This document shows, one piece after another, positions 1,224 through 37,035 of a stretch of 64,000 nt of DNA (the first letter of the stretch is position 1; each line of letters opens with the position of its first letter). The position numbers and the translations under genes were made by a program. This DNA comes from Candidatus Woesearchaeota archaeon (GTDB lineage Archaea > Nanobdellota > Nanobdellia > Woesearchaeales > GW2011-AR4): positions 3,863-67,862 of the forward strand of contig JACPMX010000010.1 of NCBI GenBank assembly GCA_016185755.1, in the 5' to 3' direction. The notes beneath the pieces were generated by a model. It was not told the DNA's origin. It saw only the letters and a program-made list of their open reading frames with translations, and did no database searches.

Positions 1224-1532
1224 TTAAATGACTTCTTCTATTATGTCTTCATCCACCTCATAGTCAGAGGCATTTGCTGTTTCCCTTATCACAAGGTACT
1301 CGTATGCCTTCTGAAGGACCAATGCGGCCTTTGGCAGGTCATTAATTCTCAAAGAATTAGCTGTTTGCCAGACTCCACTCTTGTCTTTATACCTTCTCTG
1401 CAAAGAAACGGTTCTGTAACCTACTGGTTCTCCGCTTCTGCTCTTGCCTTGGTTCTGCCAGACAGTTGCAGTTATAACTCCTGTGCTGAATTTCTTTTCA
1501 GGCACGTTTCTAGTTTCGTTCATTTTCTTCAC
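1224..1532 (-). CDS. hypothetical small protein (102 aa)
   Basis: Single clean ORF with an acidic C-terminus and no recognisable motif. Preceded at 1673-1713 by a TATA box plus the ACCACTGGACA motif on the same strand. Confidence 0.4.
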   Translation of the reverse strand: MKKMNETRNVPEKKFSTGVITATVWQNQGKSRSGEPVGYRTVSLQRRYKDKSGVWQTANSLRINDLPKAALVLQKAYEYLVIRETANASDYEVDEDIIEEVI

Positions 1533-1873: not shown

Positions 1874-2080
1874 TCACATAGAAATAAGATTATCTACCTG
1901 CAGCTCTTTTAGAATATTGGGATTTCTTTCCTTGACAAACAATATTTCAACCCCTATCACATCACCTTTCTTGTTGAAATCTATCACTGTGTTTTCGTCT
2001 ATCTCTTTCGTCTTGGCAACCTTATCCTTCTTCAGGGATATGTACATTGCATCCGCATCGGAATCATATCTTATTCTCAT
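1874..2080 (-). CDS. DUF2283-family protein (putative antitoxin-like partner)
   Basis: 68 aa. Opens MRIRYDSDADAMYISL, typical of DUF2283. Overlaps the upstream DUF4258 gene by 4 nt (ATGA). Confidence 0.7.
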   Translation of the reverse strand: MRIRYDSDADAMYISLKKDKVAKTKEIDENTVIDFNKKGDVIGVEILFVKERNPNILKELQVDNLISM

Positions 2081-2289
2081 TTTATGAAATAGGAGGTTAT
2101 TACCTTTATATAATTTTCTTTTACATAAATGACTTTGAGAGTGTTGCCATTCAGCCTTTTCACTGCATAAAATTTGCGCCCTTCAACTCTTGTTTCATCG
2201 GGAGCTTTAAGAGCCTCCTCGACCCAGATTTTAGGTATTTTACGTTCCCTTATCTGCTCTTCAGCATGCAGTGTATAACTAATTTTCAT
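2077..2289 (-). CDS. DUF4258-family protein (putative toxin-like partner)
   Basis: 70 aa. Start MKISYTLHAEEQIRERKI and VKRLNGNTLKVIYV are typical of DUF4258. Forms a two-gene operon with the DUF2283 gene. TATA box TTTATAAA at 2313-2320. Confidence 0.7.
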   Translation of the reverse strand: MKISYTLHAEEQIRERKIPKIWVEEALKAPDETRVEGRKFYAVKRLNGNTLKVIYVKENYIKVITSYFIK

Positions 2290-3425: not shown

Positions 3426-4352
3426 CTATTGTTTTTTAGGGATATAAGCTGCAAACTTCACAACCAAAGGCCTTTCCTTCATCATTCCGTCTGTCTTGTC
3501 ATAAGCCATTATCTTGAAATCCTTCTTTTCAGCGCAAAGCCTGTAAATGCTCTTAGGATTTATGCTGCAGCTTTGGAGCTTGCTTATTTCAACAGGCTTG
3601 TTGCCGGCATCCAAAATAAGGCCGTCCTTTGGATTTTTAAGGTTGTCATTCTCCTGCTTGGCAAAGATTATGGAATTTTGCCCTTTGTAAAGGACGATCT
3701 TTTCCACTGGACCGGGGCCTTCATAGTTGCCGCTTGCGTCATTGAAAAATAGGTTAATATTTGGTGTTCCGTATTGGTTGTAATGGAATACATACCTCGC
3801 TGGTGACCATATTGAAATTCCATTTGTACCTATATCCTGCGACGTCCCGGCATCTGATTCTATCTTTATTTTCTTAAAGCTTGCCTCTTCAAACTTGAGC
3901 TCAAAGTTCTTGTTCAAAAGCCCATAATCCTCTATCTGCCATTTTGTCAATGAGAACTCCTTAGTGCATATGCAATTATTGCTGCCGGAATCAATGCAGT
4001 CCTGGAAGAACTCTGCAAATTCGTAAAGGACTTTTTCAGTCCCTTTGTCGCAGTTCAATGACCATGCAAAAGACTTGTCATTATCATTAATTTCATTCAG
4101 GCACAGGTAAATGTCTTTTTCCTTGGCGCAGCTTGAAATAGAGGCAAATGATTCCTTTATCTTCCTGTAATCATCCAGGCCATAATCAATCTTTGCCCTG
4201 AACGAAGGGTTTATGGAGTAAGTCCCGAGCAGATTGGAATCTTTCTGCCCTGCTGCAACAGCCCCGGTTATTTTATTGGCATCAGTATATACGACAAGCC
4301 CCATCAACAGCGCCGGGATCAGCATCAGCAAAAAAAGGTCTTTTGCTTCCAT
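3426..4352 (-). CDS. secreted hypothetical protein
   Basis: 308 aa. N-terminal hydrophobic signal/anchor LFLLMLIPALLMGLVV. Cys-containing. Last gene of the surface cluster. Confidence 0.5.
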   Translation of the reverse strand: MEAKDLFLLMLIPALLMGLVVYTDANKITGAVAAGQKDSNLLGTYSINPSFRAKIDYGLDDYRKIKESFASISSCAKEKDIYLCLNEINDNDKSFAWSLNCDKGTEKVLYEFAEFFQDCIDSGSNNCICTKEFSLTKWQIEDYGLLNKNFELKFEEASFKKIKIESDAGTSQDIGTNGISIWSPARYVFHYNQYGTPNINLFFNDASGNYEGPGPVEKIVLYKGQNSIIFAKQENDNLKNPKDGLILDAGNKPVEISKLQSCSINPKSIYRLCAEKKDFKIMAYDKTDGMMKERPLVVKFAAYIPKKQ

Positions 4353-4353
4353 T

Positions 4354-5475
4354 TTATGATATTGCCCTTACCTCCTGTCCTGTTTTCTGCTCGAGAGCGA
4401 CTGCCCTGTTGTACCTGTCAGTTCCGCAGCATTCGTAATGCCAAAGCTCTGCAGAATATCTTCTGAAGCCTGCCTTGTACATTACCCCTTCAAGCTCTTT
4501 CCAGTCTGCAACCGTCATTGTTTTTTTGAACCTGACATCAACGGCTTTTCCGCTCATGTGCGGGCATGAAGCAAGCCCCTTATTGGGATTGCAGACATAC
4601 TTTGCTCTTTCCGCATCAGTTGGGAATCTTTGCGCGTATTTTTCAGGAGTCCTTCCTTCCCACAGGTCTCTTTGCTCCTGCTCAGACCTGAAAGCTGAAT
4701 AAACCTCAAGTTCTTTCCCTTTTTCCTTTGCAATCCTTTGCGCATCGGCTGCTTTTTGGTAAGCTTCTAATGTCAGCCTGCATTTGATTCCTTTTGCGCA
4801 CAAATTCTCGTCGCTAAAGTCCTTGAAGCCTGAAATCTCCTGCAGAGTGGGCATCTGCTCCGGGCCGATTATTCTTTTCTCTTCTTTGGGAATTCGCTTC
4901 AGCGTCTCTTCTTTCTTCTTTATGCTTTCATCCTTCAGAATCTCAAATTTCAATGGATCTTTCGAAATACCGATAATTTCTGTGCTGCCCCTTATGTCAT
5001 AGATATAGTTGTTAAGCTGGATTTCTGAAGGGTAATTGGCAATGTATCCGCTGAATTTTTCATTGAACTGCAGCTCAAGGTTTAATTTTATTTTATTCTC
5101 GCTGAAGCAGTCAACACCTTTGTCATTCCATAGGAAATAGCCGTAATATTTTCCGCACTCTTTAATTGGAGAATGCAGGGTTGGGTGCTCTCTTGGAGTC
5201 AGGATTTCGCTTGCATAAACCTCGCTTAATCCCCCGTCTCTCGCAAGGTCGTAAACTGCCTGCTGCAAAGAATACTTTGCTGACTGGTCGATGTAAAACA
5301 AGGCTCCCTCGGCTTTCATGTAAACTTTGAGCAGTGTGAATTGCCTGTCTCCGATCGGGGAGCTGGAAAACGTCCCTGTCTTTGACAAAAGAACAATAAA
5401 CAAGTAAATCAGGATTAATGATGACAGAATAACCAGTAAAGGCAGGAAAAAAAATGATGCTTTTTTATTTTTCAT
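4354..5475 (-). CDS. membrane-anchored peptidase M15 (VanY / D-Ala-D-Ala carboxypeptidase-like) domain protein
   Basis: 373 aa. N-terminal TM segment. C-terminal domain has CPHMSGKAVD (the H-x2-G-x-A-x-D zinc-ligand motif) and ELWH (E-x-x-H), the VanY/M15 signature. Confidence 0.6.
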   Translation of the reverse strand: MKNKKASFFFLPLLVILSSLILIYLFIVLLSKTGTFSSSPIGDRQFTLLKVYMKAEGALFYIDQSAKYSLQQAVYDLARDGGLSEVYASEILTPREHPTLHSPIKECGKYYGYFLWNDKGVDCFSENKIKLNLELQFNEKFSGYIANYPSEIQLNNYIYDIRGSTEIIGISKDPLKFEILKDESIKKKEETLKRIPKEEKRIIGPEQMPTLQEISGFKDFSDENLCAKGIKCRLTLEAYQKAADAQRIAKEKGKELEVYSAFRSEQEQRDLWEGRTPEKYAQRFPTDAERAKYVCNPNKGLASCPHMSGKAVDVRFKKTMTVADWKELEGVMYKAGFRRYSAELWHYECCGTDRYNRAVALEQKTGQEVRAIS

Positions 5476-5966
5476 TTTAGAGGTATATTTTTGGTTGATG
5501 GCTGGGCTATGTCTGATTTAAATGCGACTTCTATCGCTGCGCCATATGCTGGGACAGAGATGACATTTTCAGAGCATCCAAAATGCTGCAGGCTTGAGCA
5601 TCCCCTGCTCTTGAGCTTTTCTCCGTCTATGCAAAAAATGCTGCATTTATTTCCGAAATAATCATCCATGATCTGCATTATGCTCTTTTCAGCTAATTGA
5701 TTTTTCGAGCTGTCAAATCTTGACAATGCTATAAGCTCTGCTATGCTCATTTTTGAGTTGTTTATTTCGACTGGTGTCTTGAGTATATTTATCAAAGAGA
5801 TTGTGTCTGCAACATTGCCTGATTCTTCTGGTATCTGAAAAGTGGCTTTTCCAAGTGTAAGCTTTATCAGCAGGTAAAACACCAGGATGACGAAAGCGTA
5901 GGCTAGGATGGAAAAAAAGTCAAGGAATCCCATTCCCTTTTTTCTAGTTCGGCAAAACTGCATCAA
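5472..5966 (-). CDS. class-III-signal-peptide-like (pilin-like) membrane protein
   Basis: 164 aa. N-terminus RTRKKG/MGFLDFFSILAYAFVILVFYLLI: basic stretch, Gly, then a hydrophobic helix with an acidic residue at +5. This resembles prepilins. Confidence 0.45.
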   Translation of the reverse strand: MMQFCRTRKKGMGFLDFFSILAYAFVILVFYLLIKLTLGKATFQIPEESGNVADTISLINILKTPVEINNSKMSIAELIALSRFDSSKNQLAEKSIMQIMDDYFGNKCSIFCIDGEKLKSRGCSSLQHFGCSENVISVPAYGAAIEVAFKSDIAQPSTKNIPLK

Positions 5967-6459
5967 CAGTAAGCACCCCTTTTTTTATATTATCTTTGTC
6001 TTTTATCAGAACGTAAAAGTTTGTTGAAAGCCCCCTTGCAGCGCCCTCCCCGATTAATTTTGCTTCAACAAGCACTTTTTTCTCTTTATAGAGTGGCTCA
6101 TTGTAATAGGTGGTGTACACATCACCTGACTCAATATCTTCCAGCTCAAGCTTCGCAGATGCCTCCGAATTTACGCTGCCGTAATAAATTGAGTTCAGTA
6201 TGCTGCTTTTGAATTCTTCCGATGAGAATTTTTCCAGGTCTATTGTTCCGATGTACTGCCTTTTAATCTCATCATCAACATGGCTGATATCCTTTGACAG
6301 CAGCAAGCTATGCGTCAGCAATCTTGATTCTGTCTCGAAAACATCTATTTTTTCCTTGATGGCTGCATTTGCAACCAGTGTGATGGAGTAAAACACGAAA
6401 ATTGCAAAGATTATCCTAAAAAAGTTCAGTATGTCGTCCATTGATGCTGTTTTATTCAT
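5944..6459 (-). CDS. N-terminally anchored hypothetical protein
   Basis: 171 aa. TM helix IIFAIFVFYSITLV near the N-terminus. Overlaps its neighbours by 8 and 23 nt, so translationally coupled. Confidence 0.4.
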   Translation of the reverse strand: MNKTASMDDILNFFRIIFAIFVFYSITLVANAAIKEKIDVFETESRLLTHSLLLSKDISHVDDEIKRQYIGTIDLEKFSSEEFKSSILNSIYYGSVNSEASAKLELEDIESGDVYTTYYNEPLYKEKKVLVEAKLIGEGAARGLSTNFYVLIKDKDNIKKGVLTVDAVLPN

Positions 6460-6901
6460 TCCTGCTCACTTTGATTTTTCCTTCGGATTTGGAAAACCTG
6501 AAAGACTTGGCGCCTGCAACAGAATATTTCTCTGTATCAGCATGATTTCTTCCATAATGGTAGTTCTTTGGCATGCCTTCAGCGCCTATCCTTATTGTCG
6601 GTGTTTTGTCATCCTCATACTCTGTGATTTGCAGATTGAATTTTGACAAATCAAGCTTGTTAAAAGAATATTCATAGTCAACATTGCCGGGCGCGCTGTA
6701 GAGAGTGTTCATTAAAAGCGCAATATCCCTGCTCAGAAAAATGTTCTGGAATCCTGTATCGTTCTCTATGGACTTTACATATATTACCATCAATACAACC
6801 ACAAAAAGAAGCAGCGCGGCCATTGCAATATGAATCAGCATCTGCCTTATGGTAACTTGGCTTTTTTTGCTTGAGAAATGCAAAACTGCTCTTTTTTTCA
6901 T
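6452..6901 (-). CDS. N-terminally anchored hypothetical protein
   Basis: 149 aa. TM helix IAMAALLLFVVVLMVIYV after a basic N-terminus. Confidence 0.4.
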   Translation of the reverse strand: MKKRAVLHFSSKKSQVTIRQMLIHIAMAALLLFVVVLMVIYVKSIENDTGFQNIFLSRDIALLMNTLYSAPGNVDYEYSFNKLDLSKFNLQITEYEDDKTPTIRIGAEGMPKNYHYGRNHADTEKYSVAGAKSFRFSKSEGKIKVSRNE

Positions 6902-6935
6902 AATTATTCTTTAGAATTGCACTTTAAATGCTTTT

Positions 6936-7724
6936 CTAATGAGTTGTTCCTTGAGCGCCAGCACCGCCAATAGCTCCGCCGCTTGGCTTAAAATCGCTTT
7001 TTTTGTTTAATTCTCCGATTACAATGAAAATATTTTCCCCTTCCCTGATTTTGTCAAGAGAAACCTGCTTTATTCCCCAGCTGCTGCGCCAGAAGCCGCC
7101 GCATATTCCGTAAAGCACGAGATAATTGTAGCTGGGCCACCTGTTCGAGCTCGGCTTGGCATTGGCTTGGGTGCCGAAAAAATTTGAGTCTCTTGTTGAT
7201 GCCAAAAAGACTATTTTTTCTTCGAATGGCTTGCACTTTACCGGTGCTGCATCCCCTTTAAGGTCAAAATCATTTCCAGACCAGTCTGTTATGCCGCCTG
7301 TGTTTTGGTAGATGCACAGGCATGACTTTGACTGGCATAATTTCGGCCTTGATGTAATTATGCTTTCCCCTGTGCATTCTGTCCTAACCCCATTATCATT
7401 ATAGCTAAAGCCCGCAAGTATGTAGTCATCTGTAATGCTGTACACTGTTGTTTGTGTTGTCACAGCTTTTCTGTCGTTTGCAAGCTCTTTTACCCTGTTT
7501 GACAATGCCTCAAGGTTATTAACTGTTGACTGGTACTCCTGGCCGCTGAGAAAAAGGCCGCTGAGCCTTAAGATGTAATAAAACAATACAGAAAGTATTA
7601 TTATTCCAGCTATAATCTCGATCAGAGTCCATAAAGAAAGGTCTATTATTGATCTTTTGCCTTTGAAAAAAGGTATTTTTGGCATTTCATACCTTGGCAA
7701 CAGGTGCGGCACCGCCTTCAACAC
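6936..7724 (-). CDS. N-terminally anchored secreted hypothetical protein
   Basis: 262 aa. KGKRS then LWTLIEIIAGIIILSVLFYYIL, a pilin-like N-terminal helix. Gly-rich C-terminus. Confidence 0.4.
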   Translation of the reverse strand: MLKAVPHLLPRYEMPKIPFFKGKRSIIDLSLWTLIEIIAGIIILSVLFYYILRLSGLFLSGQEYQSTVNNLEALSNRVKELANDRKAVTTQTTVYSITDDYILAGFSYNDNGVRTECTGESIITSRPKLCQSKSCLCIYQNTGGITDWSGNDFDLKGDAAPVKCKPFEEKIVFLASTRDSNFFGTQANAKPSSNRWPSYNYLVLYGICGGFWRSSWGIKQVSLDKIREGENIFIVIGELNKKSDFKPSGGAIGGAGAQGTTH

Positions 7725-8118
7725 ATCTTCGGTCGCTTGTCATGACAAAATTATCGCAGTCCCTTGCAATCTTGTCATTGTCATTTTTATCGCAGCTTCT
7801 TGGCACATCATCACCATCGCCGTCATGAGTAACATCATTATTCTTGCATCCTGCATCAGAACATACACACGGGTCGCAGTCATCCTTAAGCCCATCTCCA
7901 TCCCTGTCATTGGATTGTGTTAGTACCAATCCCCTTTCCATTGCCCTTTGGGTGTCAAATCCGCATCTCGCGAGCGCTGCCTTGTAAAGCTCAGAAGCGG
8001 TTATTCTTGCAGCTTCTGAGGTAGGCCTTCTTATGAGATTAGTGCCTGTAATCAGGACGAGCACTCCTAAAACAAGCAGTACTATAAATCCGATTCCAAT
8101 AGCCTTTTTATTCATCAT
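7687..8118 (-). CDS. pilin-like protein with thrombospondin-type-3-like Ca-binding repeats
   Basis: 143 aa. N-terminus MMNKKAIGIGFIVLLVLGVLVLI looks like a class III signal. DRDGDGLKDDCD and HDGDGDDV are Asp-rich Ca-binding loops. Confidence 0.55.
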   Translation of the reverse strand: MMNKKAIGIGFIVLLVLGVLVLITGTNLIRRPTSEAARITASELYKAALARCGFDTQRAMERGLVLTQSNDRDGDGLKDDCDPCVCSDAGCKNNDVTHDGDGDDVPRSCDKNDNDKIARDCDNFVMTSDRRCVEGGAAPVAKV

Positions 8119-8119
8119 T

Positions 8120-8374
8120 TCAGCCTCTTAGCGGGTTAATGCAGCATACTTCCTTCTGAGCATTATCTTTTTCAGGGCATGTAAATTCGGTTTTTTCGTA
8201 TTGGCAGCTAGATTCATCAACACATTCTCCGTTCTTGGACTCGCAGGAGAAAGCAGCCTTGCTAAATCCTCCTGATGCATTGCCAAGCATATATATCAAA
8301 ATTACAACTGCTATCAAGGATATCGTTGCTATCACAATTATGTTTATTGGCAATCCCTGCGCTTTTCTTTTCAT
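8120..8374 (-). CDS. class III signal peptide (type IV pilin-like) protein
   Basis: 84 aa. MKRKAQG/LPINIIVIATISLIAVVIL followed by a small Cys-rich globular part. Confidence 0.6.
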   Translation of the reverse strand: MKRKAQGLPINIIVIATISLIAVVILIYMLGNASGGFSKAAFSCESKNGECVDESSCQYEKTEFTCPEKDNAQKEVCCINPLRG

Positions 8375-8619
8375 TTTAAATTAAAAATAATAAAGCTTGG
8401 TAATGTGATAAGCCTGCCAGCGTTTATTATTAAGTTTTTTGTCTTGCCTGGTTCTGGGGTCTTGTCCTTATCAAAGTCAATTGAGCCATATGATGTTCCT
8501 ATCCCCAAAAGCTGTTTTATATAGCCCCCAAAAAATATGGAAATCAAAAAAGCAAGTATTGCTAATATAAGCAGTATAACCCAGAAAGGTACTCCGCTTC
8601 CCTGGCCTTTTCTGTTCAT
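8371..8619 (-). CDS. class III signal peptide (pilin-like) protein
   Basis: 82 aa. MNRKGQG/SGVPFWVILLILAILAFLI. Confidence 0.55.
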   Translation of the reverse strand: MNRKGQGSGVPFWVILLILAILAFLISIFFGGYIKQLLGIGTSYGSIDFDKDKTPEPGKTKNLIINAGRLITLPSFIIFNLK

Positions 8620-8822
8620 GTGAATGCGCCACCAATCGCTTTTCCAAGATTTGCCATCCTGACGCTGATAGGGCCAATCCCAAAATACAGCAATATTATA
8701 AGCAAGATTACCGCTCCCGCTACCCCAAGCGCAAAATAGTTTACATCAGCTTTTCTGTTTTTCATGTTTTTCATTTGTTTTGCCTGCAATATAAATAATT
8801 TATTGTTTGACCGGTATTTCAT
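8616..8822 (-). CDS. small membrane protein
   Basis: 68 aa with a single TM helix ALGVAGAVILLIILLYFGI. Overlaps both neighbours. Confidence 0.3.
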   Translation of the reverse strand: MKYRSNNKLFILQAKQMKNMKNRKADVNYFALGVAGAVILLIILLYFGIGPISVRMANLGKAIGGAFT

Positions 8823-9696
8823 TGCAGTTCAGGCTCTGCAGGCTTTCTGCATCATACGGGATAAAAGACAGAAATGCGGCGTGCTCAAAAGGAACCCCGC
8901 TGAAATACGCCGCGAACCCGGCCCAATAAGTCCCCCCGACAATCATTGCTCCGCCGGTTAGGGAGATAAAAGTTCCTACTGGAACTCCAACAAATGGTGT
9001 TAAGAAAGCTGAAATCACCCCTCCGGCGCCGATGCCAAGCTTGACAACAGCAAATCCAAGGGCGACAGTTCCGACAGCAGGGGCAGTGTATTTTGTTTTT
9101 TCCCAGTAATTTTTGATTTTTTCCTTGCCTTTGATGTAAGTGAATACAACAGCATACTCATTATTTACAGAGGCATCAATCACATCCTCAATTTTCCTGT
9201 TGCCAAGCGAGGCCAGATATTTAGAATACTCCGATTCACCGGGCTTTTCTGTAGTGAATAGCTGCAGATAGTTCAATTTCTCATTTTCTGGATGTGCATT
9301 GCTGAGATAATCTGTGATGCCCTTTACCTTGATGTCTTTGTTAAGGGTTATTCTTGTGCATATTGTGCAGTATACATTGTCGTCTGAAAAAAGCTCCAGC
9401 TTTCCCCTGCCATACTTGTCCCAGCAGTCAAACATCGACGAGGCTATCTGACCCTTGACTGCATTTTCGTCTTTGTCATCTATCTTAAGCTCGATTTTAG
9501 GGCAGTTTATTTTCCCTGAAAAATCGGCATATTTCAGCTTCAGCCTTGAATGGGTAAGCACGCTTGTCTTGCATATCTGCTTTTCAGCTGCCTTGTTATA
9601 AGCCTCTTTGAGGCTTGCCCACGATGTGGCTGCGACAAAAAGTATTAATATAAAAATAACCACAAAAACGAATCCGTAGTTAATTGTATTGTCCAT
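8800..9696 (-). CDS. membrane-anchored secreted protein, paralog A of a tandem pair
   Basis: 298 aa. N-terminal TM. Shares CP(K/R)x(E/N)(L/I)KI and (D/L)CW(D/Y)K motifs with the adjacent 9698-10474 product. Gly-rich hydrophobic C-terminal segment. Confidence 0.5.
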   Translation of the reverse strand: MDNTINYGFVFVVIFILILFVAATSWASLKEAYNKAAEKQICKTSVLTHSRLKLKYADFSGKINCPKIELKIDDKDENAVKGQIASSMFDCWDKYGRGKLELFSDDNVYCTICTRITLNKDIKVKGITDYLSNAHPENEKLNYLQLFTTEKPGESEYSKYLASLGNRKIEDVIDASVNNEYAVVFTYIKGKEKIKNYWEKTKYTAPAVGTVALGFAVVKLGIGAGGVISAFLTPFVGVPVGTFISLTGGAMIVGGTYWAGFAAYFSGVPFEHAAFLSFIPYDAESLQSLNCNEIPVKQ

Positions 9697-9697
9697 A

Positions 9698-10474
9698 TTA
9701 GTTCATTAAAATGTCGCATTCCTCTCTGATTTTATCCTGCTTGCCCAGGCCTATGTAATAGGCTGATGTGTAAGCCTCTGTCTGCTCAACCAGCCACGTA
9801 GGCTTCATCGCCAGAAAATAGATTAAATATCTGCTGTTTGTGTCAAATTTTTGGTCGTCTATTTTTCCAGTTTTTCCGTGTCCATATGGAGTATACTGGG
9901 TCCAGCCGATGCCGCCCCATAAAAGGTACAGATTTCTTTGTGACCTTATCAGATACTCGAAATAGCTGATGGCTTCGTTTGGAATTTTGCTTGATTTAAG
10001 GTAATCATCAAGGCCTTCAAACATTCTTCCTCTTAATTTTTCATCAAATTCTATCTCTGAGCAGATTAGGCACTGGTAATATTTAGAGTCGCTGAAAAAG
10101 ATTGACTGCTCGAGAACGTTTCTGTTGCCTTCTGCCATTTTGTACCAGCAAAGCCTGAGCTCCTCTGCAGCTATTTTGTTTACTTCCTCTTGTGTTAATT
10201 TTCCAAAGCTGTATTTTTTAGAAGTCTTTCCATTCAATTCCACTTTATTTTCAAAGATTTTAATATTTCTTCTTGGGCAGTCAAGCTTTACAACGCTTTT
10301 CCCGAAAAACTTGGTTTGTGCCTGCGCCAAAACGCTCAGCCTGCATGTATCTACATCTGCATTTTCTTTAAGTTGGCCGGCAGTTGAATATGCGAAACTG
10401 AACAAAATTAGGGCGCCGGCCATGACTATTATCAGAACGACCAAAACCTGCGGCTCTACTCCTCTTTTGTTCAT
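9698..10474 (-). CDS. membrane-anchored secreted protein, paralog B of a tandem pair
   Basis: 258 aa. N-terminal TM VLVVLIIVMAGALILF. Conserved Cys spacing matches paralog A. Confidence 0.5.
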   Translation of the reverse strand: MNKRGVEPQVLVVLIIVMAGALILFSFAYSTAGQLKENADVDTCRLSVLAQAQTKFFGKSVVKLDCPRRNIKIFENKVELNGKTSKKYSFGKLTQEEVNKIAAEELRLCWYKMAEGNRNVLEQSIFFSDSKYYQCLICSEIEFDEKLRGRMFEGLDDYLKSSKIPNEAISYFEYLIRSQRNLYLLWGGIGWTQYTPYGHGKTGKIDDQKFDTNSRYLIYFLAMKPTWLVEQTEAYTSAYYIGLGKQDKIREECDILMN

Positions 10475-10682
10475 CTTACTTAAAGATTATGTTCATGGCC
10501 CTTAAAATGATAAATCCCATTACGCCTACTGTAAATAATGCTGCAAGAATGTAAAATAATGTCCTGAGGTTTATTTCAAAGGCTTTTTTGCTGTTAAAAA
10601 TTTGGATGTTATTTATTCTAACCATGCCAAAATACTTCAGAACCGGATATATAAATATGTCGAAATTAAATTTAGAACTGAG

Positions 10683-10964
10683 CTAAGTGCAGCAGCACTT
10701 CTTCCTTACGCCGTCAACAATGACGGAGTAGCCCGGCAATGGAGGCCTTCCTGAGCCGCAATCTGTTGCTGTCTCATCAGTTGCTGATCCGTCTGCATAT
10801 CCTGCTGACTTACAAGCCTGCTTGCAGTCAGTCGCCTCTGAAAGGCCTTTGCTGAAAAGGCCGAGCCTGCCTGTGAAAATCATGAAAAGGACGACAAGAA
10901 CGGCAAGCGCAATGGCTGCTATTATTATCACATTGATGGAAATGCCCTGTGCTTTCTTGCGCAT
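10683..10964 (-). CDS. class III signal peptide (pilin-like) protein, Cys-rich
   Basis: 93 aa. MRKKAQG/ISINVIIIAAIALAVLVVLF. C-terminus KKCCCT. Nearly the same prepilin-like leader as the 8120-8374 product. Confidence 0.6.
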   Translation of the reverse strand: MRKKAQGISINVIIIAAIALAVLVVLFMIFTGRLGLFSKGLSEATDCKQACKSAGYADGSATDETATDCGSGRPPLPGYSVIVDGVRKKCCCT

Positions 10965-11031
10965 ATCTTTGCCTCTTTGACATCTAATCTGTTGAGCAAG
11001 TTATATTTAAATATATCGGAACATGGCATCC

Positions 11032-11502
11032 TCATCCGCAAATGTCGAGTTTTGTGTACATAGTGGCTGTGCTTATCGGTATAGGGAACAGCTTTGACCT
11101 TTTCTCAGCCCCGCACTTCTTTCCGAGCTTTATGAGCGGCTGGTTTGCATCAGTATATGCCAGAAACTCGTACTCCATGTTCCACTTGTCAAATGTGCTC
11201 TCAAATATTTCCTTGGATACAGCCTCTACAAACCTGCATGAATCCTGGCCGTTGTCGCACACTACGCTTCTCGCCTGGGCGCAGTCCTGCAGCAACTCTG
11301 TCATTGTAAGCTGCGAGCAGTCCTTGGCAGCTGTCTTCAGCAGGGTGCTCAGCATATTGGATGCCGTCTCTGAGCTTACGAAGCCTTTCCTGTATTCTGT
11401 AGGGGCCTTGACAACCAGAAACCTGACAACAAAGACTGCAGCCACAAGTATCAAAACAACCACTATGGCCAATCCAAGTATCTCCATCTGGGCTTTTCTC
11501 AT
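11032..11502 (-). CDS. class III signal peptide (pilin-like) protein
   Basis: The ORF track extends to 11631. I place the start at the internal Met, giving MRKAQMEILGLAIVVVLILVAAVFVV. That start abuts the stop of the upstream gene at 11499-11501, so the two are coupled. Confidence 0.5.
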   Translation of the reverse strand: MRKAQMEILGLAIVVVLILVAAVFVVRFLVVKAPTEYRKGFVSSETASNMLSTLLKTAAKDCSQLTMTELLQDCAQARSVVCDNGQDSCRFVEAVSKEIFESTFDKWNMEYEFLAYTDANQPLIKLGKKCGAEKRSKLFPIPISTATMYTKLDICG

Positions 11503-12011
11503 TTTGTCATGGTCTCTATAGTCATTATGCCGAACCCGTGCCTTCTTGCAGCCGGGTCGTATATTGAAATCGGGACATTTGTAACAAACTTGCTCTTGAA
11601 GTCGCTTGTTTTCCTGGAATATAGGTTCCATCTGGCTTCATTCGGGTATATCTGCACTATGCTTACGTTGCTGTACTCAAGCAGGTCATAGTAATAAATC
11701 TCATTTTGCTTCATGAGGCTTTGCGCAGGATCAAGCTTCATGATATCAACGCAGTTGTCAATTATTATATTGTCCCCGCTGCACTGGACTTCAGGCAAAA
11801 ACATCACTCTTTGCGCTATGCCGACAGACTTGAGCTGGGACAGCTCTTCCTTTTCAAGCTCTATATTGCTCTTGATGACTTTTACATAAAAAATGAATCC
11901 TATGATTATCAGTATGAAAAATACGAACAGGACCGCTATAGTCTCCCCTATCTGGATTTGTGATTTAGTAGATAAGGGTGCACGAGTATATCTGCGCATT
12001 CTTGTTTTCAC
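11499..12011 (-). CDS. N-terminally anchored pilin-like protein
   Basis: 170 aa. KSQIQIGETIAVLFVFFILIIIGFIF hydrophobic helix follows a basic N-terminus. Confidence 0.45.
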   Translation of the reverse strand: MKTRMRRYTRAPLSTKSQIQIGETIAVLFVFFILIIIGFIFYVKVIKSNIELEKEELSQLKSVGIAQRVMFLPEVQCSGDNIIIDNCVDIMKLDPAQSLMKQNEIYYYDLLEYSNVSIVQIYPNEARWNLYSRKTSDFKSKFVTNVPISIYDPAARRHGFGIMTIETMTK

Positions 12012-12960
12012 CTGCCAGAATCTTTGCCGATTCTGATATTATATCTGCATTCTCCTTGTTAAAGTCAGGAGCTGCGAGGATTCTGTTTAATTGGGTTAGT
12101 GCACTGTTATAGAATTGGTTGCACTGAACTTGCCTGCTTGAAGTGCCGCTTTGGACAAGTTTCTTTGTCCTTTCAGCGTATATTTTAGTCACAAGGTTGA
12201 GCTTCAAAAATGCATTTTGCATGCTGCATTCATAAGCCTCCAGGGTGTCAGAGTATACTGCAGCAACCAGGGAATTTCTGCCGATATAAATAGAGCTGCC
12301 TCTAGAAAGCCATGAGTTCCCGTTTTTTTGGTAGAATTCTACAGCCCCTTTTTCTGCATCGCCAATAACCCTAAGGGAAGTAACATCCTCATCGCGCATT
12401 TTTCCCAGCGAGCTTGGAAGAGGAATCATTTCCTCAAAAGCCACGATCCTTACCTTGTAGTTGTTGGCATTTACTATTGGGGCAGCTGTTTGATAAAATT
12501 CCTTATTAAGCTCTGCAGGAAGGGTCTTGTTTATCTCCCTTGCAAGGTTGGTATTGCCTATGATTATGTACCTTGCCCCTGTGCTTGTGGCATAAAGAAG
12601 GTTTGTTGCCCTGTACGGCGCGTTGAAAGACAATGTCTGTGTTGTTATCCTGCTTCCCCTGATGGAGCCAGGCGCAAACAAAATAAGGCTCTGGTATTGT
12701 TTTGACACTCCGCCTATTGATATCCTGCCGCAGCCTACATCAATATCCGATTCCGGTATGTTTACTGTGTTTATAGTGTCAGAGCTTATGCCTGCCCCGG
12801 TTATTATGGCTTCTATGCTCTTGAGCACAGCTGCCTTTGTGGATGTTTCTGACACGCTTTTCTGCTTTGCAACTACAACAGTGAAAAAAAGAAGTATGGC
12901 GGCGCCTGCAACCAGCACGAAAAGCCAGTTGAACTGCACTTCAAATCCTTTCTTGTTCAT
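11965..12960 (-). CDS. class III signal peptide (pilin-like) protein, large
   Basis: 331 aa. MNKKG/FEVQFNWLFVLVAGAAILLFF: the G-F junction with an acidic residue at +2 resembles bacterial and archaeal prepilins. Confidence 0.55.
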   Translation of the reverse strand: MNKKGFEVQFNWLFVLVAGAAILLFFTVVVAKQKSVSETSTKAAVLKSIEAIITGAGISSDTINTVNIPESDIDVGCGRISIGGVSKQYQSLILFAPGSIRGSRITTQTLSFNAPYRATNLLYATSTGARYIIIGNTNLAREINKTLPAELNKEFYQTAAPIVNANNYKVRIVAFEEMIPLPSSLGKMRDEDVTSLRVIGDAEKGAVEFYQKNGNSWLSRGSSIYIGRNSLVAAVYSDTLEAYECSMQNAFLKLNLVTKIYAERTKKLVQSGTSSRQVQCNQFYNSALTQLNRILAAPDFNKENADIISESAKILAGENKNAQIYSCTLIY

Positions 12961-12969
12961 TTTGAAAAG

Positions 12970-13458
12970 CTAATTCCATTGCCCCAGCGAAGCATGATTC
13001 CCCTTTCCCTCCAGTTTCAGGCTTATTTTGCCGTTTAAAGCCTTTATGCACAGCACGTCCGGCTCGACAGATATCTTTCCGGCAAAAAATGATTCTTTGG
13101 CTATGTTCTCAACAAGAAAAACATTCTTTCCAGTGCTGGAGAGTATGCTGTCTTTGATTATAGGATCAATGCTGCCCGGAATGTTGGGGCTTTCAAAACT
13201 CTCGACAAAGCATGCCTGCGTATAGCCGGAGCATAATTGAAGGTCTTTTCTCTTTACGCTTCCGAAATCGCTGGATATGCTTTCCACTGCATTCTGCAGG
13301 TCGTTCTTGAACTTGAGGCAGGACACCTGTTCAGCCCTGTTCTTGAAGTTCTGGACTGCGTTATAGCCGTAGACCAGTATGAAAGATATGAGTATTATCG
13401 TCAGTATGTATATGAACACCTGGCTGTAGATTTGCGCCTTGGATTTTTTCGCTGCCAT
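12970..13458 (-). CDS. class III signal peptide (pilin-like) protein
   Basis: I place the start at the internal Met, giving MAAKKSKAQ/IYSQVFIYILTIILISFIL. That start lies 1 nt after the stop of the 1692-aa gene. The longer ORF would overlap that gene by 125 nt. Confidence 0.5.
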   Translation of the reverse strand: MAAKKSKAQIYSQVFIYILTIILISFILVYGYNAVQNFKNRAEQVSCLKFKNDLQNAVESISSDFGSVKRKDLQLCSGYTQACFVESFESPNIPGSIDPIIKDSILSSTGKNVFLVENIAKESFFAGKISVEPDVLCIKALNGKISLKLEGKGNHASLGQWN

Positions 13459-13459
13459 A

Positions 13460-16400
13460 TCATTTTTTTCTCTTGGATTTTGATTTGGCAAGCTCGTAAA
13501 GTTTTCCAATATTGTCCTTAGGTTTTGCGCTTGGCTGCCTTTGCTTGTCTTTTTTTGCAATCTGGGCAAGTTTTGAGATAGCATCCTCTTTTGGCTTCTT
13601 TTGCTCGGGTTTTTTTGTTTCCTTGCTCTCTTTTGGCTGCTCCTTTATGGTTTTTTCCGCAGCTCTAGGTGCGCCGAACGGCTCGAAAAGCTTTGCTCTT
13701 TCCTGCTCTTTCTGCTGCTCTTTCTTTTTTAATGCTTCCCTTATATTTGCATCTTCCTGCTTTTGGATTGTTTGCTTCGCCTGCTGCTGCGGCTGGAAAA
13801 TAGGTTTTGGGTGCTCCTCCCCCTTTGGCATTTCAAATTTTTCTGCTTTTCTTTTGGTTATTGCTTTATGGGCCAGGTATCCAAATCCTGACAGCAGGAG
13901 AATTATCCCTATGGCAAATGCCAATACCTTGGCGAAGCTTGATTTTGGGAAATCGTCAGGGTTTACAGGGCTTGTTCCTGCGTCAATTTCTTCCTTGTCT
14001 GTAAAGCTGTCTTTGTCTGTGTCTGCAGCGTTTGGGTTGGTGCTTTCGCCATAAGTCCTTTGTACATTAAACTCTTCAAGATTTGTAAGCCCGTCAGAAT
14101 CCGAATCCAGCCCTGAATCATTCGGATTATTTGGGTCGAAATTATTTTTAATTTCCCATTCGTCAGGAATTCCGTCGCCGTCAGTGTCTTTTATTCCTGC
14201 GCTTTCCTGCTCGTCAGGAATTCCGTTGCAGTTTGCATCGTTGCTCTGGCACCTTTTGCACGCAGACAGTATGCACTGCAGGCCCTCTCCGCAGTCCTCG
14301 TTAATGCCGCAGCTCTTGTCTTCAGGGCACTTGGATGGGCAGTGCCCTCCGCAGTCAACATCTGATTCGCCCGGGCTTAGCTTGCTGTCGGAGCAGCTTT
14401 CCTGCGGCTTGCAGAATCCAAAGCTGCAGAATCCGCTGTCGCAGTCGTTGCTGCTTGAGCATGCCTTGTTGATTTCGCATTTTCTGCATTGCCCTCCGCA
14501 GTCAACATCGCTTTCTTCCTGATTTTTTGCATTGTCGTCGCATTTTGGGGCTGAGCATATTCCGCTGTTGCAGAAATTCGATACGCAGTCGCTGTTTATC
14601 GAGCATTTTTTGCCTGTGATGCACAAGTCGCATCCGGAGCCGCAGTCCACATCCGGCTCTTTTTCATCTTTTATGCCGTTTGTGCAGTTGAGGGGCTTTA
14701 GGCTTGTGTCCACGGTTATTCCGTCGCTCTCGCTTATATTGCTCGATAGCCCGGCAATGTTCTGCGCCTTGACCCTGAAGAGATACCTGTTGCCGTTCAG
14801 TAGCCCCAGGCTCGTCCCGTTTGGCCTTGTTGCTATTACATATTCATTATTAAGCAGGCTTTTGGTATTATTTAGTACAACTCTTGATGTTCCAGATTCA
14901 ACAATAGAGTAAACATGGGAGATGACTCTGGATTCATTGTCTATGCTGTTCCATTTGACCCTGAGTACATCAGTGCTGAAAGTGAATTCTGGCTTGTCCT
15001 GGAGTGAGCTGCTGTCATTGATGGATAATATTGCCGGCGGGGTCAGGTCTATTGTAAATTCAACCTGCTTCACATCAGAGAATTTCTGCAGGAACTGGTC
15101 CTTGCATACAACATAAAAAGTGTGCTTTCCGGCAGTTGAGCTCAGCTGCCTTGTATGGCTGTATCCGGGCGCTCCAAATATGTCGCCGTTCTGCGCTGTA
15201 TTGTCTGTCTCGGAGAATTTGCATTGTGATTTCTTGTTTGTCTCTATGGCAAGTATAGCACTTGTTGAATTGAAAAATTCCGGCGTATGGGAGATTATTG
15301 AAATTGGAATTGTCAGATCAATCTTGATTTGCACCTCTTTTGCATCTGAAACAAGCTCTGCCCTGTTTTCGCATGCTATGAAGTATGTATGGCTGCTTCC
15401 ATTCCCGGCAGTTATTGGCTGCCTGCTGATAAGCTTGAAATTTCCCTCATCAAATCCCTCAAATTTGCCCTCCATATTGGCAAATTCCTTTGTGGTGGTG
15501 CTGAACTTGCACCTGACAGGCTCGTCCGATTCGACAGCAAACGCAGTTTCAAAAGGCTCCTCAATGATGGGATTTGGGAATGCAAATGCGCTTTTCAGCT
15601 GCGGAATTGTCGGGTCAACGTTAATATCAAACGACTTGAATGTTATGCCCTTTTGGTCTTTGCATCTTATGTTAAGCTTGTGTGCATTTGCATCTCCGCT
15701 CGCTATCTTGCTGAAGCCCAGTATTGTATGGATTGTTCCTGAAGTGTTTGTGAAAGGCTCCATGAACTCGAACTCGAAATTATTGTCAAGCGAGAATCTG
15801 CAGGATGCGTCATTGTCTGTTTCAGCGACAACATCAAAGACTGATTTGGGCGCGACTCCAAACCTCGGCTTTAAAAGGCTGATTACGCCGGGGTTTGCGT
15901 CAACCACAAATGAAACAGAGCCAGTGGCCCTGTTCCTGGCAAAGTCGCTTGCTGTGACCTCAAGATTTTTGTTCCCGTCAGAAATGTTCAAAGTTGCTGT
16001 GAATGCCTTGTTGTCTATAGTGGAAAAAGACTGCTTTATCTCCTCAGAGTTTATCTTGGCTGATTCCAGGCTGACTTCCTTGTCGAATGCAAGCTTTATA
16101 TTTACCGCCGAGGTGTTGACTATGCTGCCGTCAGGGGGGGTTATTTCAAGCAGCGGCTTGCTGTTGTCTATGACTATTATCTGGGATACTGCAGGGTCCA
16201 TGAATATGTTGTTTTTGTTTTTTGCATCCAGCTCTAGCGTGTACTCCCCATTCGGCAGTGTTTCTGCGACCGAAAATGACGCCTTTATATTCAGCTCAGC
16301 GCCGGCCTGCAGGGTGACGATCAATCCTGTTTTTTTGTTCACAAGCCTTGAGTGGGTTATTGCTGCAGGCTCGAAAAACTGCACGTCTATGGCCGGCTTT

Positions 16401-18538: not shown

Positions 18539-19719
18539 ATTCTATTGACAGTTACTGTCTGGTAATCCGAAAGGCTGCCGTCGCTGGCTTCGACCCTGAA
18601 ATTGATTTGCGGAATTTCAAGTTTTTTCGGCAATGAGGGGGTTATGGTGAAAGTAATGTTGTCCTCGTCAGGATCCTCCGCCTTCAGCCGGTAATTATCT
18701 AAAAGATCATCTTGTTTTATTTCAAAATTGTGCGGAAATTCAAGTGTGCCCTTCCTTATGTAATAAAGTGCCGGCATCCTGTTCCTCCTTGCAAAAATAT
18801 ACTCGAGCGGCTTTCCGTAAACCAGTGATTTGGCATCTTCTACAATTATGATGTCATCATTGGAAATTTCATTTTTCCTTGTTTTAACTTCAAAAAAATC
18901 CTTGCTGTTTTTTGCATCGCTTATGTCAAATTTTATGTTTTTGATGTCGTTTTCAATCAGCTCTTTCGAAAAAAAGTAAAGGTCCCTGAGCCTTACGCCA
19001 GCATTTGCCGAGAATTCATTCATCTCCGCAAGCTCATTTGTTGCAGGGTTCCTTATTGTTATGGGCATTTTTGTCCTTATGCTGACATCGCCGCTTCCTA
19101 TAGTCACTTCTGTCTTCGAGGGCTGCACCTCAATTTCCAGGCCCTGTTTTTCAAAAGGCTCAAGATTAGCGCAGCTTTCCATGTTCTTGTCAATGAATGA
19201 TTCTATCTGCACCTGGATTGAGTTTGGCCCCTCGGAAGAGTTCAGCGGCGGCATGTTGCTTATCCCGAAAAACCCGTCAAAAATTTCTGCATTTGAAGCT
19301 GCTGTCCTGTAAGGGAATGCCGCCCATGGATAGTCCGGGGCATCTGATGCGTACGGCGCCACCGCAAATTTTGGAGGTAAAATATTATATGCCACTTTGA
19401 AATTGTTGTGGTTGGCAAAAAAAATTCCCTCGTCAGTATCCTGGTAGTCGACCAAAGTTCCGCCCTGGCTCGCATATATGTATCCCCCCTGCCTGCCGAG
19501 CAAAATTATCGCGTCCTTTGCAAGCTTGTCAATGCATTTTGCGGCAAATTCCTTGATCGGCTGCACTTCAGCTGCTGCGTCCTGCGTCCTTTTTATGTTC
19601 TGCTGGCTTTGCTTCCTGACAGCCGATTTTGACAGGTACAGGGCAAGGCTGATCGCGATGAAAATAACCAGGCCTACAATGAGCAGCATCGTGACCTGTG
19701 ACTTCAGCTTCAGCCTCAT
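18535..19719 (-). CDS. N-terminally anchored secreted protein
   Basis: 394 aa. TM VTMLLIVGLVIFIAISLALYL. Overlaps both neighbours by 4 nt. Confidence 0.6.
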   Translation of the reverse strand: MRLKLKSQVTMLLIVGLVIFIAISLALYLSKSAVRKQSQQNIKRTQDAAAEVQPIKEFAAKCIDKLAKDAIILLGRQGGYIYASQGGTLVDYQDTDEGIFFANHNNFKVAYNILPPKFAVAPYASDAPDYPWAAFPYRTAASNAEIFDGFFGISNMPPLNSSEGPNSIQVQIESFIDKNMESCANLEPFEKQGLEIEVQPSKTEVTIGSGDVSIRTKMPITIRNPATNELAEMNEFSANAGVRLRDLYFFSKELIENDIKNIKFDISDAKNSKDFFEVKTRKNEISNDDIIIVEDAKSLVYGKPLEYIFARRNRMPALYYIRKGTLEFPHNFEIKQDDLLDNYRLKAEDPDEDNITFTITPSLPKKLEIPQINFRVEASDGSLSDYQTVTVNRI

Positions 19720-34312: not shown

Positions 34313-35806
34313 TTATTGCCCGAATTTGAGTATTTTTATGTCTCTCGTCTGCAAATTCACGATCGGGACCCTGCTCGGTTCCGGATTATGCCCAACTTTT
34401 TCCTGGAAGCTGGTCTTGCCCTGCCAGCAGCTTCCGCAGATCAGTGTGGTGTTTCTGTAATTTGCCGTAGCTGTTTTGTGTATGTGCCCGCTCAGGAAAA
34501 AATCAGGGACCTTTTCTATCACAAGCGGGTCTTTCTTGGTGTCTGGGATGTAAAGTGTTGAAAGGTGGGATGGTGCCAAGTGCCTCCTTTTCAGTAAAAA
34601 TTTCATGATTAAGTCTGCCCGGTCATACCCTCCCTGGTTCCTGAGCGAATCCACCTCGGCAACAAAATAGTCAAATGAGTATCCATGGTACATCATCACG
34701 TCAAATCCTGCAAAGTTTGCAGATGAGCTGATGTTGACCATTGAAGGGTTTGACACCATGATTGCATTGTTAAGCTCGTACATCGGCGCTGCAAAGTTTC
34801 TCGACAACGGCGGCTGCGGCTCTGAAATTCTTATTGCATCATGGTTCCCGGGGCAAATTACCAAGGGGATATTATTGGGTATCTGCTTGAGCAGCTCTGC
34901 GCATTCCCTGTATTGCTGGTAGATGTCTTTTATGGAAAGCTCCTTGTCCTGCTCGGGGTAAATTCCGCAGCCGTCAACCAGGTCTCCTGCAATGAATATG
35001 CATTCAACATTTTTTGCTATGTGCCTTTGCTGCTCATTGCCGGCCTCGCAGTTTATCCACCTGAGGAATTTTTCAAAATCGTCGGGCAGGAATTTGGACG
35101 ATCCGACATGAAGGTCTGACAGGAACAGTGCATATTTTTCCTGCTCTGATTTTTTAAGCTCCTTGCTTGAGGGAGTGTCCGGCCAGACAATGCTGTTGGC
35201 GAATATCATAGTTTCCGCATTCACCCCAGTGATCCCTATCACTTCGTCCATAACCAGGTCTTTCGCTTCCTTGAATAGGTCCGGCCTGTTCTTATTGACA
35301 AGAACCCTCTTCCTTCCCGTCGGGTCTTCAAGCATCAAAAGCATATTGCCGTTCTTCGTCACTTGCTTGTCGCTGACCATTCCAATGATTGTTATTTTCT
35401 CTTTCTCTTTTTTGTTCTGTATCTTGTTTAATGAAATTGTATTTTTAAGCTCCTGGTGCTGCTTGAGTATTTTTTCCATTGCCTTGTACCTGTTGTTGAA
35501 GTAATCGGCAAAATCCTGTGTTTCCCTTTTTTTCGGCTCTTCCTTGTGTGAAAAAATGACCTTGACTTTTTCTCCGGTCTTCTCAATATATCCCTCCGCT
35601 AATTTTTCAGGTTGGGGCTCTTCTATAAGCCTGCCGAGCTCCAGGCCCAGCACTGCAGAATCAGTGTGCTTTGATTTGAGCAATTCAAAAAGTTTGGAAA
35701 TATGGTTGTAATCTTTTATCTCCAGCAGCTTGGGGCTGATTAAAACGCCGTTTTTCAGGCACGTGTCTATGATCTCGCGCTTCTTTTTGATGATTTCTTC
35801 CTGCAT
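34313..35806 (-). CDS. DNA polymerase II (PolD) small subunit DP1
   Basis: 497 aa. Calcineurin-like phosphoesterase motifs GDLVD and CPGNHD. N-terminal OB region. Confidence 0.9.
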   Translation of the reverse strand: MQEEIIKKKREIIDTCLKNGVLISPKLLEIKDYNHISKLFELLKSKHTDSAVLGLELGRLIEEPQPEKLAEGYIEKTGEKVKVIFSHKEEPKKRETQDFADYFNNRYKAMEKILKQHQELKNTISLNKIQNKKEKEKITIIGMVSDKQVTKNGNMLLMLEDPTGRKRVLVNKNRPDLFKEAKDLVMDEVIGITGVNAETMIFANSIVWPDTPSSKELKKSEQEKYALFLSDLHVGSSKFLPDDFEKFLRWINCEAGNEQQRHIAKNVECIFIAGDLVDGCGIYPEQDKELSIKDIYQQYRECAELLKQIPNNIPLVICPGNHDAIRISEPQPPLSRNFAAPMYELNNAIMVSNPSMVNISSSANFAGFDVMMYHGYSFDYFVAEVDSLRNQGGYDRADLIMKFLLKRRHLAPSHLSTLYIPDTKKDPLVIEKVPDFFLSGHIHKTATANYRNTTLICGSCWQGKTSFQEKVGHNPEPSRVPIVNLQTRDIKILKFGQ

Positions 35807-35807
35807 T

Positions 35808-37013: not shown

Positions 37014-37017
37014 GCTT

Positions 37018-37035
37018 TTCCATGCGAAATGAAGG
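37018..37035 (+). promoter_or_regulatory. ORB-like element TTCCATGCGAAATGAAGG (copy 1 at cdc6)
   Basis: Identical 18-mer to 25138-25155. It resembles an archaeal origin recognition box of the TCCA-N4-GAAATGAA type, as I recall the consensus. It lies immediately upstream of the cdc6 start. Confidence 0.6.

Follow-up and report, generated by a model that had tools for sequence, protein, structure and literature searches.

In a 64,000-nucleotide stretch of DNA from a Candidatus Woesearchaeota archaeon (contig JACPMX010000010.1; the whole stretch is referred to as the window), the gene at 4354..5475 of the minus strand encodes a 373-amino-acid protein in which a prepilin-like N-terminal module, the carrier, is joined to a LAS/M15 zinc peptidase domain. 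The gene lies in an operon for pilin-like and adhesin-like surface proteins, and in related genomes the same position of this operon is occupied by carriers with other murein hydrolases or with none. From sequence comparisons and structure predictions, we propose that the operon probably encodes a surface or pilus-borne device with which the archaeon breaches the wall of a bacterial partner at contact.

The peptidase domain and its carrier

The gene and its product are laid out as follows (aa, amino acids).

4354..5475, minus strand: carrier and M15 peptidase gene, a single open reading frame of 373 aa with its stop codon at 4354-4356
5380..5475, minus strand: N-terminus (aa 1-32), MKNKKAS and a hydrophobic helix of 25 residues, read as a class III (prepilin-like) signal with putative cleavage or as a signal anchor
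4927..5475, minus strand: carrier module, the conserved N-terminal part (aa 1-183) as delimited by alignments, which contains the ALFYIDQSAKYSLQQAVYDLA motif and the invariant C107 and C123
4834..4926, minus strand: Lys/Glu-rich linker (aa 184-214), predicted to be flexible, with a mean predicted local distance difference test (pLDDT) score of about 48-55 over aa 181-210 and segments below 50
4357..4833, minus strand: C-terminal LAS-fold zinc peptidase domain (aa 215-373; MEROPS M15, VanY/LdcB/VanX-like)
4684..4698, minus strand: SAFRS motif (aa 260-264) with the invariant R263, aligned with SGYRT/SGYRS of VanY-B/LdcB
4537..4566, minus strand: CPHMSGKAVD (aa 304-313) with the zinc ligands H306 and D313, aligned with SEHQLGLAVD of VanY-B
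4438..4449, minus strand: ELWH (aa 343-346) with the catalytic E343 and the zinc ligand H346, aligned with EPWH of VanY-B

An earlier note, made from the DNA letters alone, had taken CPHMSGKAVD and ELWH for the zinc-binding signature of M15 peptidases, an assignment that, although the sequence is divergent, is upheld by conservation of the ligands, by the profile alignments and by the fold. The LAS/M15 signature is present as H306-x6-D313 and E343-x-x-H346. The homologue set comprised 58 full-length proteins with 34-76% identity, 56 of which were used for the conservation alignment and profile; in this alignment R263, H306, D313 and H346 were invariant, E343 was at least 90% conserved, and 7 of the 8 Cys in the 373-aa protein were invariant. 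In Pfam, the domain scored just above the gathering cut-off for VanY (PF02557, 26.5 bits, E 6e-6, cut-off 25) and just below that for Peptidase_M15 (PF01427, 26.2 bits, cut-off 27), and other family members reached an E-value of 1.7e-18 for VanY. The profile of the 56 homologues matched VanY-B, LdcB, VanX, VanXYc and Ply500 among the sequences of the Protein Data Bank (PDB), and the SxYRS, HxxxxxxD and ExxH motifs lined up in these alignments. When the single protein was searched against the PDB sequences by phmmer, the sole match was SasG, which was rejected as a spurious, low-complexity match.

The AlphaFold2 model had a mean pLDDT of 79, with values >90 over aa 220-373, and Foldseek matched it to VanXYc (E 4e-6), LdcB, VanY-B and VanX, which identifies the LAS fold. 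The endolysin relatives LysB4 and Ply500 were slightly lower in structure scores, phage M15B proteins were lower again, and Hedgehog N-domains were also among the structural matches. Judged by alignment and model, the C-terminal ~155 aa form a zinc peptidase of the LAS/M15 type whose active site is complete; its predicted activity may be that of a lytic endopeptidase rather than of a trimming carboxypeptidase.

Orthology with the VanX/VanY vancomycin-resistance enzymes was also considered. The NCBIfam model of the D-Ala-D-Ala dipeptidase DdpX/VanX (NF007557) matched with an E-value of 2e-12 and 47 bits versus an equivalog cut-off of 176, and that of the VanY resistance peptidase (NF000086) gave 15.9 bits versus a cut-off of 250. 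With scores so far under the equivalog cut-offs, this orthology was rejected, and the protein is no orthologue of VanY, LdcB, VanXY or VanX (M15B/M15D). It differs from VanY, LdcB and VanX also by a Cys in place of the motif Ser, by the CC directly after ELWH (C349 and C350, invariant in the 56 homologues), by further invariant Cys, and by its fusion to a prepilin-like carrier in an archaeon.

The class III signal of archaeal pilins consists of a short basic n-region, G, A or S at the cleavage site and a hydrophobic helix of ~20-25 residues. The N-terminus of the peptidase protein, MKNKKAS-FFFLPLLVILSSLILIYLFIVLL, likewise combines a basic n-region, a G/A/S residue after K/R and a hydrophobic helix. 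We noticed that G, A or S stood immediately after the last K/R of a short n-region in 210 of 217 family members, and that the uncharged stretch after this K/R had a median length of 24 residues in the same set; an h-region of ~24 residues exceeds the length expected of a Sec signal that is cleaved. Several short neighbours in the operon begin with a KAQG-I/L-type sequence, a pattern typical of archaeal pilins. A strict FlaFind-style regular expression gave 0 matches among the N-termini of the operon proteins, and the looser family-wide statistic was used. We infer that the carrier is prepilin-like, is processed and enters a filament. Given its positive N-terminus, single 25-residue helix and seven invariant Cys, the protein fits an extracytoplasmic, outward-facing location, either membrane-anchored, as had been supposed from the letters, or prepilin-like.

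Exchange of the enzyme domain in a conserved operon

A search with the carrier profile, built from the first 183 aa, covered 1.84 billion representatives of 50% identity clusters; 1176 of them matched at E<=1e-3, and with the cut-off at E<=1e-10 there were 612. Among 150 listed proteins, the match began at the N-terminus in essentially all that were full-length, the exceptions being a few short fragments. Total lengths in the carrier family ranged from about 170 to >1000 aa. The carrier module itself (aa 1-183) matched no Pfam family, and its fold is uncertain.

Further analyses with Pfam covered 113 carrier-family representatives of at least 230 aa. The most frequent family was VanY (17, with Peptidase_M15 co-matches in 15), followed by SLT (10, plus lysozyme-like, SLT_2/4 and phage tail lysozyme), M23 (8), M15_3 (7), Amidase_2 (6), M15_2 (5), M74, NlpC/P60 and M15_4 (3 each), Amidase_3 and CHAP (2 each), and glucosaminidase and C92 (1 each); fn3 was found in 8. 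A recognisable murein hydrolase was thus present in at least about half of the 113, among which Pfam found no other enzyme class, the remaining matches being fn3 and a few marginal non-enzyme families. No wall-binding domain was among the families listed for these representatives, and in the peptidase protein of the window Pfam detected the catalytic domain alone.

The enzyme domain varied also within a single operon slot. A VanY-type M15 domain occupies it in the window, in locus L001 and in others, while Amidase_2 is found in L003, M15_3 in L005, NlpC/P60 in L027 and a 179-aa carrier without enzyme in L028. Homology between the peptidase protein and the Amidase_2, M15_3 and NlpC/P60 variants stops at the linker (aa 184-214), and seven further proteins had only the N-terminal half in common, their C-termini being Amidase_2 or M15_2/M15_3. 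In a tree of the carrier module (rough neighbour-joining, no support values), the Amidase_2, M15_3 and enzyme-less variants were interleaved among the VanY-type ones, which points to repeated replacement and loss of the enzyme domain on the carrier.

These exchanges bear on the question of whether the domain acts on walls at all. It might instead have another substrate with D-amino acids or isopeptide bonds, or be a non-catalytic binding module as in Hedgehog. The marginal Pfam scores and the Hedgehog N-domains among the structural matches could be read in this way, and Strock et al. (2025; PMC12352652) cautioned that catalytic domains alone need not mean a peptidoglycan substrate. However, the catalytic set (R/H/D/H) is invariant in the 56 homologues, and orthologous positions swap the domain for other murein hydrolases only. 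A role away from walls is, in our judgement, very improbable.

The slot belongs to an operon with the following components (nt, nucleotides).

3426..22097, minus strand: whole operon, ~19 kb, 20 co-directional genes, mostly with 4-nt overlaps or 1-nt gaps
3426..4352, minus strand: downstream secreted protein, 308 aa, a short version of a protein that has 592-620 aa with fn3-like repeats in relatives
5472..6901, minus strand: three conserved small genes upstream of the peptidase gene (164, 171 and 149 aa), each product with an N-terminal hydrophobic helix
10683..10964, minus strand: candidate major pilin, 93 aa, MRKKAQG-ISINVIIIAAIALAVLVVLF, with a Cys-rich C-terminus, named from its sequence
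13460..18538, minus strand: giant secreted protein, 1692 aa, 84 Cys, adhesin-like, with sub-threshold Ig-like and TSP3 repeats
19716..22097, minus strand: Cys-rich secreted protein, 793 aa, 42 Cys, with a GGGRGRRGGGSPPPPPPCP stretch after the signal

All 20 operon products have a single N-terminal hydrophobic helix, in agreement with the view of the earlier note that the peptidase is embedded in a surface cluster. Its co-transcription with pilin-like and adhesin genes, which had also been suggested, is supported by the apparent translational coupling in this operon of pilin-like and giant Cys-rich, adhesin-like proteins, where the peptidase gene and the gene upstream of it share 4 nt and the next gene starts 1 nt past its end.

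For synteny, 23 proteins of the window were compared with 26 fetched loci by tblastn. In >20 loci, from Woesearchaeota/Nanoarchaeota metagenome-assembled genomes (MAGs), a collinear block was found that runs from the giant protein at its head through four conserved genes, the pilin-like genes, the three small genes and the hydrolase gene (29-65% identity) to the downstream secreted protein, and continues with RPA, a 102-aa protein and RadA. The operon is always just upstream of RPA and RadA, and the hydrolase slot is fixed, near the operon end. The three small genes have collinear homologues in L003, L005-L017, L022 and L023. Of the sources that bear a name, most are MAGs of Woesearchaeota, Nanoarchaeota or Nanoarchaeia. 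Given that the same gene order with RPA and RadA recurs in >20 loci, the operon is a vertical, core-genome feature.

An assembly artefact, or a recent bacterial or phage insertion, might come to mind, as bacteria and phages are where M15 domains are typically found, but it is extremely improbable here. The gene order beside archaeal RPA and RadA recurs in >20 independent MAGs and contigs, the GC content is even (0.41-0.43 over 1-12 kb of the window), and tblastn of the peptidase domain against 50,697 phage records gave no match; prophage and contamination were rejected on these grounds. That the host is an archaeon, as the letters had already suggested, is confirmed by the RadA, RPA, MCM, RNase P p30, PolD DP1/DP2, Cdc6/Orc1, SecY, TBP and ribosomal protein genes of the window.

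The downstream protein (the L001 copy is at 11043..12857) was syntenic in every locus that reached past the hydrolase gene. In 24 of the 36 carrier-family members of at least 500 aa, the carrier is fused to it, with or without a hydrolase between (e.g., P0080, P0082, P0110, P0133, P0157 and P0160); in long members the hydrolase follows straight after the carrier, and the 400-650 aa beyond these parts show homology to the protein encoded downstream of the hydrolase gene in the window. Such Rosetta-stone fusions suggest that the carrier and the downstream protein act together, and the latter is a probable physical partner of the carrier protein.

The candidate pilin is conserved in most loci, with three tandem paralogues in L001, and similar short genes are found at 8120-8374 and 8371-8619 of the window. 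After the candidate pilin gene comes a gap of 208 nt (10474..10683 region, minus strand), the longest between any two genes of the operon, which may mark a terminator or promoter within the operon by which the stoichiometry of the pilin is set. The L001 homologue of the giant protein has 2001 aa and a TSP3_bac match. None of the other 19 operon proteins of the window had a match at or above the Pfam gathering threshold, the repeats of the giant protein being sub-threshold. The very Cys-rich 793-aa and 1692-aa proteins stand at the head of the operon. For the 793-aa gene and a 394-aa gene, tblastn gave no match in the fetched loci, which seldom reach that far upstream of the giant gene.

The target wall and alternative functions

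The interchangeable enzyme domains, or cassettes, are directed at the MurNAc-GlcNAc (N-acetylmuramic acid-N-acetylglucosamine) glycosidic bond (SLT and glucosaminidase), at the MurNAc-L-Ala amide (Amidase_2/3) and at several stem or cross-link peptide bonds (M15 families, M23, M74, NlpC/P60 and CHAP). To our knowledge, bacterial murein is the sole polymer that contains all of these bonds. Pseudomurein is not known to contain MurNAc, the lactyl-L-Ala amide or D-amino acids, and would thus offer no substrate to SLT, Amidase_2/3 or DD/LD-peptidases. Given that the set of bonds fits murein and that Woesearchaeota are treated as murein-free, the most plausible substrate is the wall of a different, bacterial cell.

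The operon products would build a filament or adhesion apparatus that touches the bacterial cell, and the carrier would keep the hydrolase at the contact site via the flexible linker. There the LAS/M15 domain would hydrolyse stem or cross-link peptides of bacterial murein and locally open the partner's peptidoglycan, by which the archaeon, tiny-celled and with a reduced genome, would reach the bacterial membrane, contents or muropeptides. Action at the contact site is favored over a freely diffusing enzyme because the slot is fixed among pilin and adhesin genes, the carrier is prepilin-like and fusions occur.

The same enzymes could also serve nutrition. A surface-anchored hydrolase might digest free peptidoglycan fragments or dead sacculi without any attack on cells and so provide an auxotrophic archaeon with amino acids, D-Ala and amino sugars, with the operon forming a general adhesion or feeding structure. 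Consistent with such scavenging are the nearest solved relatives, which include the trimming enzymes VanXYc, VanY and LdcB and the dipeptidase VanX, the best NCBIfam match, which is a D-Ala-D-Ala dipeptidase model, and the description of DPANN archaea as recyclers of cellular compounds (PMC9723730). However, it is not obvious why a purely digestive enzyme would require a fixed pilin/adhesin slot, a prepilin-like carrier or fusion to a structural protein, and classic lytic enzymes (SLT, M23, CHAP and Amidase_3) are among the alternative cassettes. We regard scavenging as the sole function as unlikely; it should be noted that scavenging and wall attack are compatible and not mutually exclusive.

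Bacterial pilus, flagellum and secretion operons typically encode dedicated hydrolases, a situation that the constant slot resembles. VirB1, PrgK/TraG of Gram-positive conjugation and FlgJ are membrane-anchored, are encoded in their machine's operon and have variable SLT, CHAP, M23 or NlpC/P60 domains. The peptidase described here shares with them its predicted membrane anchor, its place inside a machine operon and the variety of such domains in its family (for such hydrolases compare PMC12102498), and like VirB1, FlgJ and PrgK it might open the archaeon's own murein- or pseudomurein-like polymer for filament assembly. Those enzymes, however, open the wall of their producer, whereas the producer here is presumed to be murein-free, which would leave a foreign wall. 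Pfam scans found no Mur-type gene in the 64-kb window, the literature searched held no report of peptidoglycan synthesis in Woesearchaeota, lineages that authors regard as murein-free (PMC8204110), and hydrolase-less slots are hard to square with an obligatory opening of the own wall. Remodelling of an own wall is thus improbable. The earlier note had left two options, cleavage of a host or prey wall and remodelling of a pseudomurein-like polymer; the first is strongly favored by the predicted cassette spectrum, and the second was rejected, since that spectrum matches murein.

Several observations weigh against a pilus-borne, wall-breaching device. Some carrier-family members have no hydrolase domain, so the apparatus is not strictly dependent on one. 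The nearest solved structures (VanXYc, VanY-B, LdcB and VanX) are of carboxypeptidases and dipeptidases, which trim stem peptides and do not lyse walls. No pilin model in Pfam matched any neighbour, the small pilin-like ones being scanned at E<=1; scans of the peptidase protein and five neighbours at E<=0.1, and of the giant neighbour and further large ones at E<=0.01, likewise gave no pilin or class III signal family. The Pfam-scanned open reading frames of the window encode neither an ATPase or platform protein of type IV pili nor a prepilin peptidase, all of which may be encoded elsewhere in the genome. Finally, some MAGs with the carrier were deposited under odd names, as 'uncultured Methanosarcinales archaeon' or, in one case, 'Thorarchaeota'.

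The oddly named deposits are L006, L007, L009, L014, L019, L020, L024, L026 and P0236; several MAGs with the operon bear the name 'uncultured Methanosarcinales archaeon', and one NlpC/P60 family member was deposited as 'Candidatus Thorarchaeota archaeon'. These names are probably placeholders or reflect mis-binning.

Genomic surroundings, known systems and implications

Outside the operon, the window consists of core informational and metabolic genes (replication, translation and pentose-phosphate). The cumulative GC skew has its minimum at ~36-38 kb, beside the Cdc6/Orc1 gene (35808..37046, minus strand) and a divergent strand switch (37046/37282), and the PolD, MCM, RPA and RadA genes are all within 35 kb. 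The region ~35800..37300 looks like a replication origin region. Between RPA and RadA lies a pair of genes with overlapping stop and start for a DUF2283 (68 aa) and a DUF4258 (70 aa) protein (1874..2289, minus strand); syntenic loci hold other genes at this place, such as a Fic-domain gene in L001, and the site looks like a variable insertion spot of the toxin-antitoxin type. The 102-aa protein encoded directly upstream of RadA (1224..1532, minus strand) is 69-100% identical among related loci, conserved like RadA, and matched no Pfam or NCBIfam family.

An M15 peptidase in an archaeon is not new. A 100% identical protein is present in NCBI on a 78-kb contig as 'D-alanyl-D-alanine carboxypeptidase family protein [Candidatus Woesearchaeota archaeon]', and the S2 table of Strock et al. 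lists LysM+Peptidase_M15 as well as LysM+SLT proteins in Woesearchaeales (PMC12352652). Woesearchaeota and Pacearchaeota were also reported to encode giant extracellular SLT proteins that were proposed to target bacterial walls (PMC8204110; PMC9723730). Modular peptidoglycan hydrolases occur in about 5% of archaeal genomes, with Nanoarchaeota prominent, and a haloarchaeal one was shown experimentally to kill bacteria (PMC12352652). Like these enzymes, the protein described here is a predicted secreted murein hydrolase of a presumably murein-free archaeon and is read as targeting bacteria. In contrast to the published ones, which have a wall-binding domain (LysM or PG_binding_1), Sec/Tat signals and a patchy distribution suggestive of horizontal gene transfer, its family has no known binding domain, but a prepilin-like carrier, a fixed syntenic slot and about a dozen exchanged hydrolase classes. 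To be counted in the published screen, a catalytic domain had to be accompanied by a known wall-binding domain, for example LysM, PG_binding or SH3 (PMC12352652), and the carrier family would therefore be missed. The literature searched had nothing on the carrier module or its prepilin-like signal, on the exchange of cassettes or on the operon slot beside RPA and RadA, nor on Woesearchaeota with a D-Ala-D-Ala carboxypeptidase or with a pilin and peptidoglycan.

Phage M15 endolysins and virion lysins (Ply500, LysB4, the T5 L-Ala-D-Glu peptidase and tail-borne hydrolases) are a further group for comparison. Enzymes of the T5/Ply500 type use DxxH, whereas the catalytic motif here is ExxH. The domain had no sequence match in the phage records, its structural match to M15B was weaker than that to cellular enzymes, and it is encoded in a core chromosomal operon and not by a virus. 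The constant N-terminal module with exchangeable C-terminal enzymes is also reminiscent of polymorphic toxins and of the 'evolved' effectors of the type VI secretion system (T6SS). Unlike in those systems, however, all recognised cassettes here are murein hydrolases, delivery would be pilin-like and not by T6SS, a type VII secretion system or contact-dependent inhibition, and an immunity gene is neither expected nor seen.

Taken together, the operon might encode a type IV pilus-like organelle of Woesearchaeales (Genome Taxonomy Database phylum Nanoarchaeota) that is vertically inherited, displays an interchangeable hydrolase on the carrier and the downstream protein, and breaches walls across domains of life, an extended proposal that we offer tentatively and with some doubt. 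Two papers describe cultivated DPANN archaea as growing as episymbionts of other archaea (PMC8204110; PMC11537232). If the proposal is true, a wall-breaching organelle would mean that a very large DPANN clade consists mainly of episymbionts or predators of bacteria, not of archaea, and the type of cassette would follow the wall chemistry of each lineage's bacterial host. The sole recognisable enzyme of the operon is always a bacterial-wall hydrolase, in many chemistries, and the operon thus provides a concrete, testable molecular handle on the bacterial dependence of the uncultured Woesearchaeota/Pacearchaeota radiation. The hydrolase type could predict the wall type of the host, and the carrier and the other operon proteins could serve as localisation targets in enrichments. 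The carrier family would also be a reservoir of >1000 divergent murein hydrolases that evolved without the constraint of self-lysis, and it indicates that published screens requiring a known wall-binding domain undercount the peptidoglycan hydrolases of archaea.

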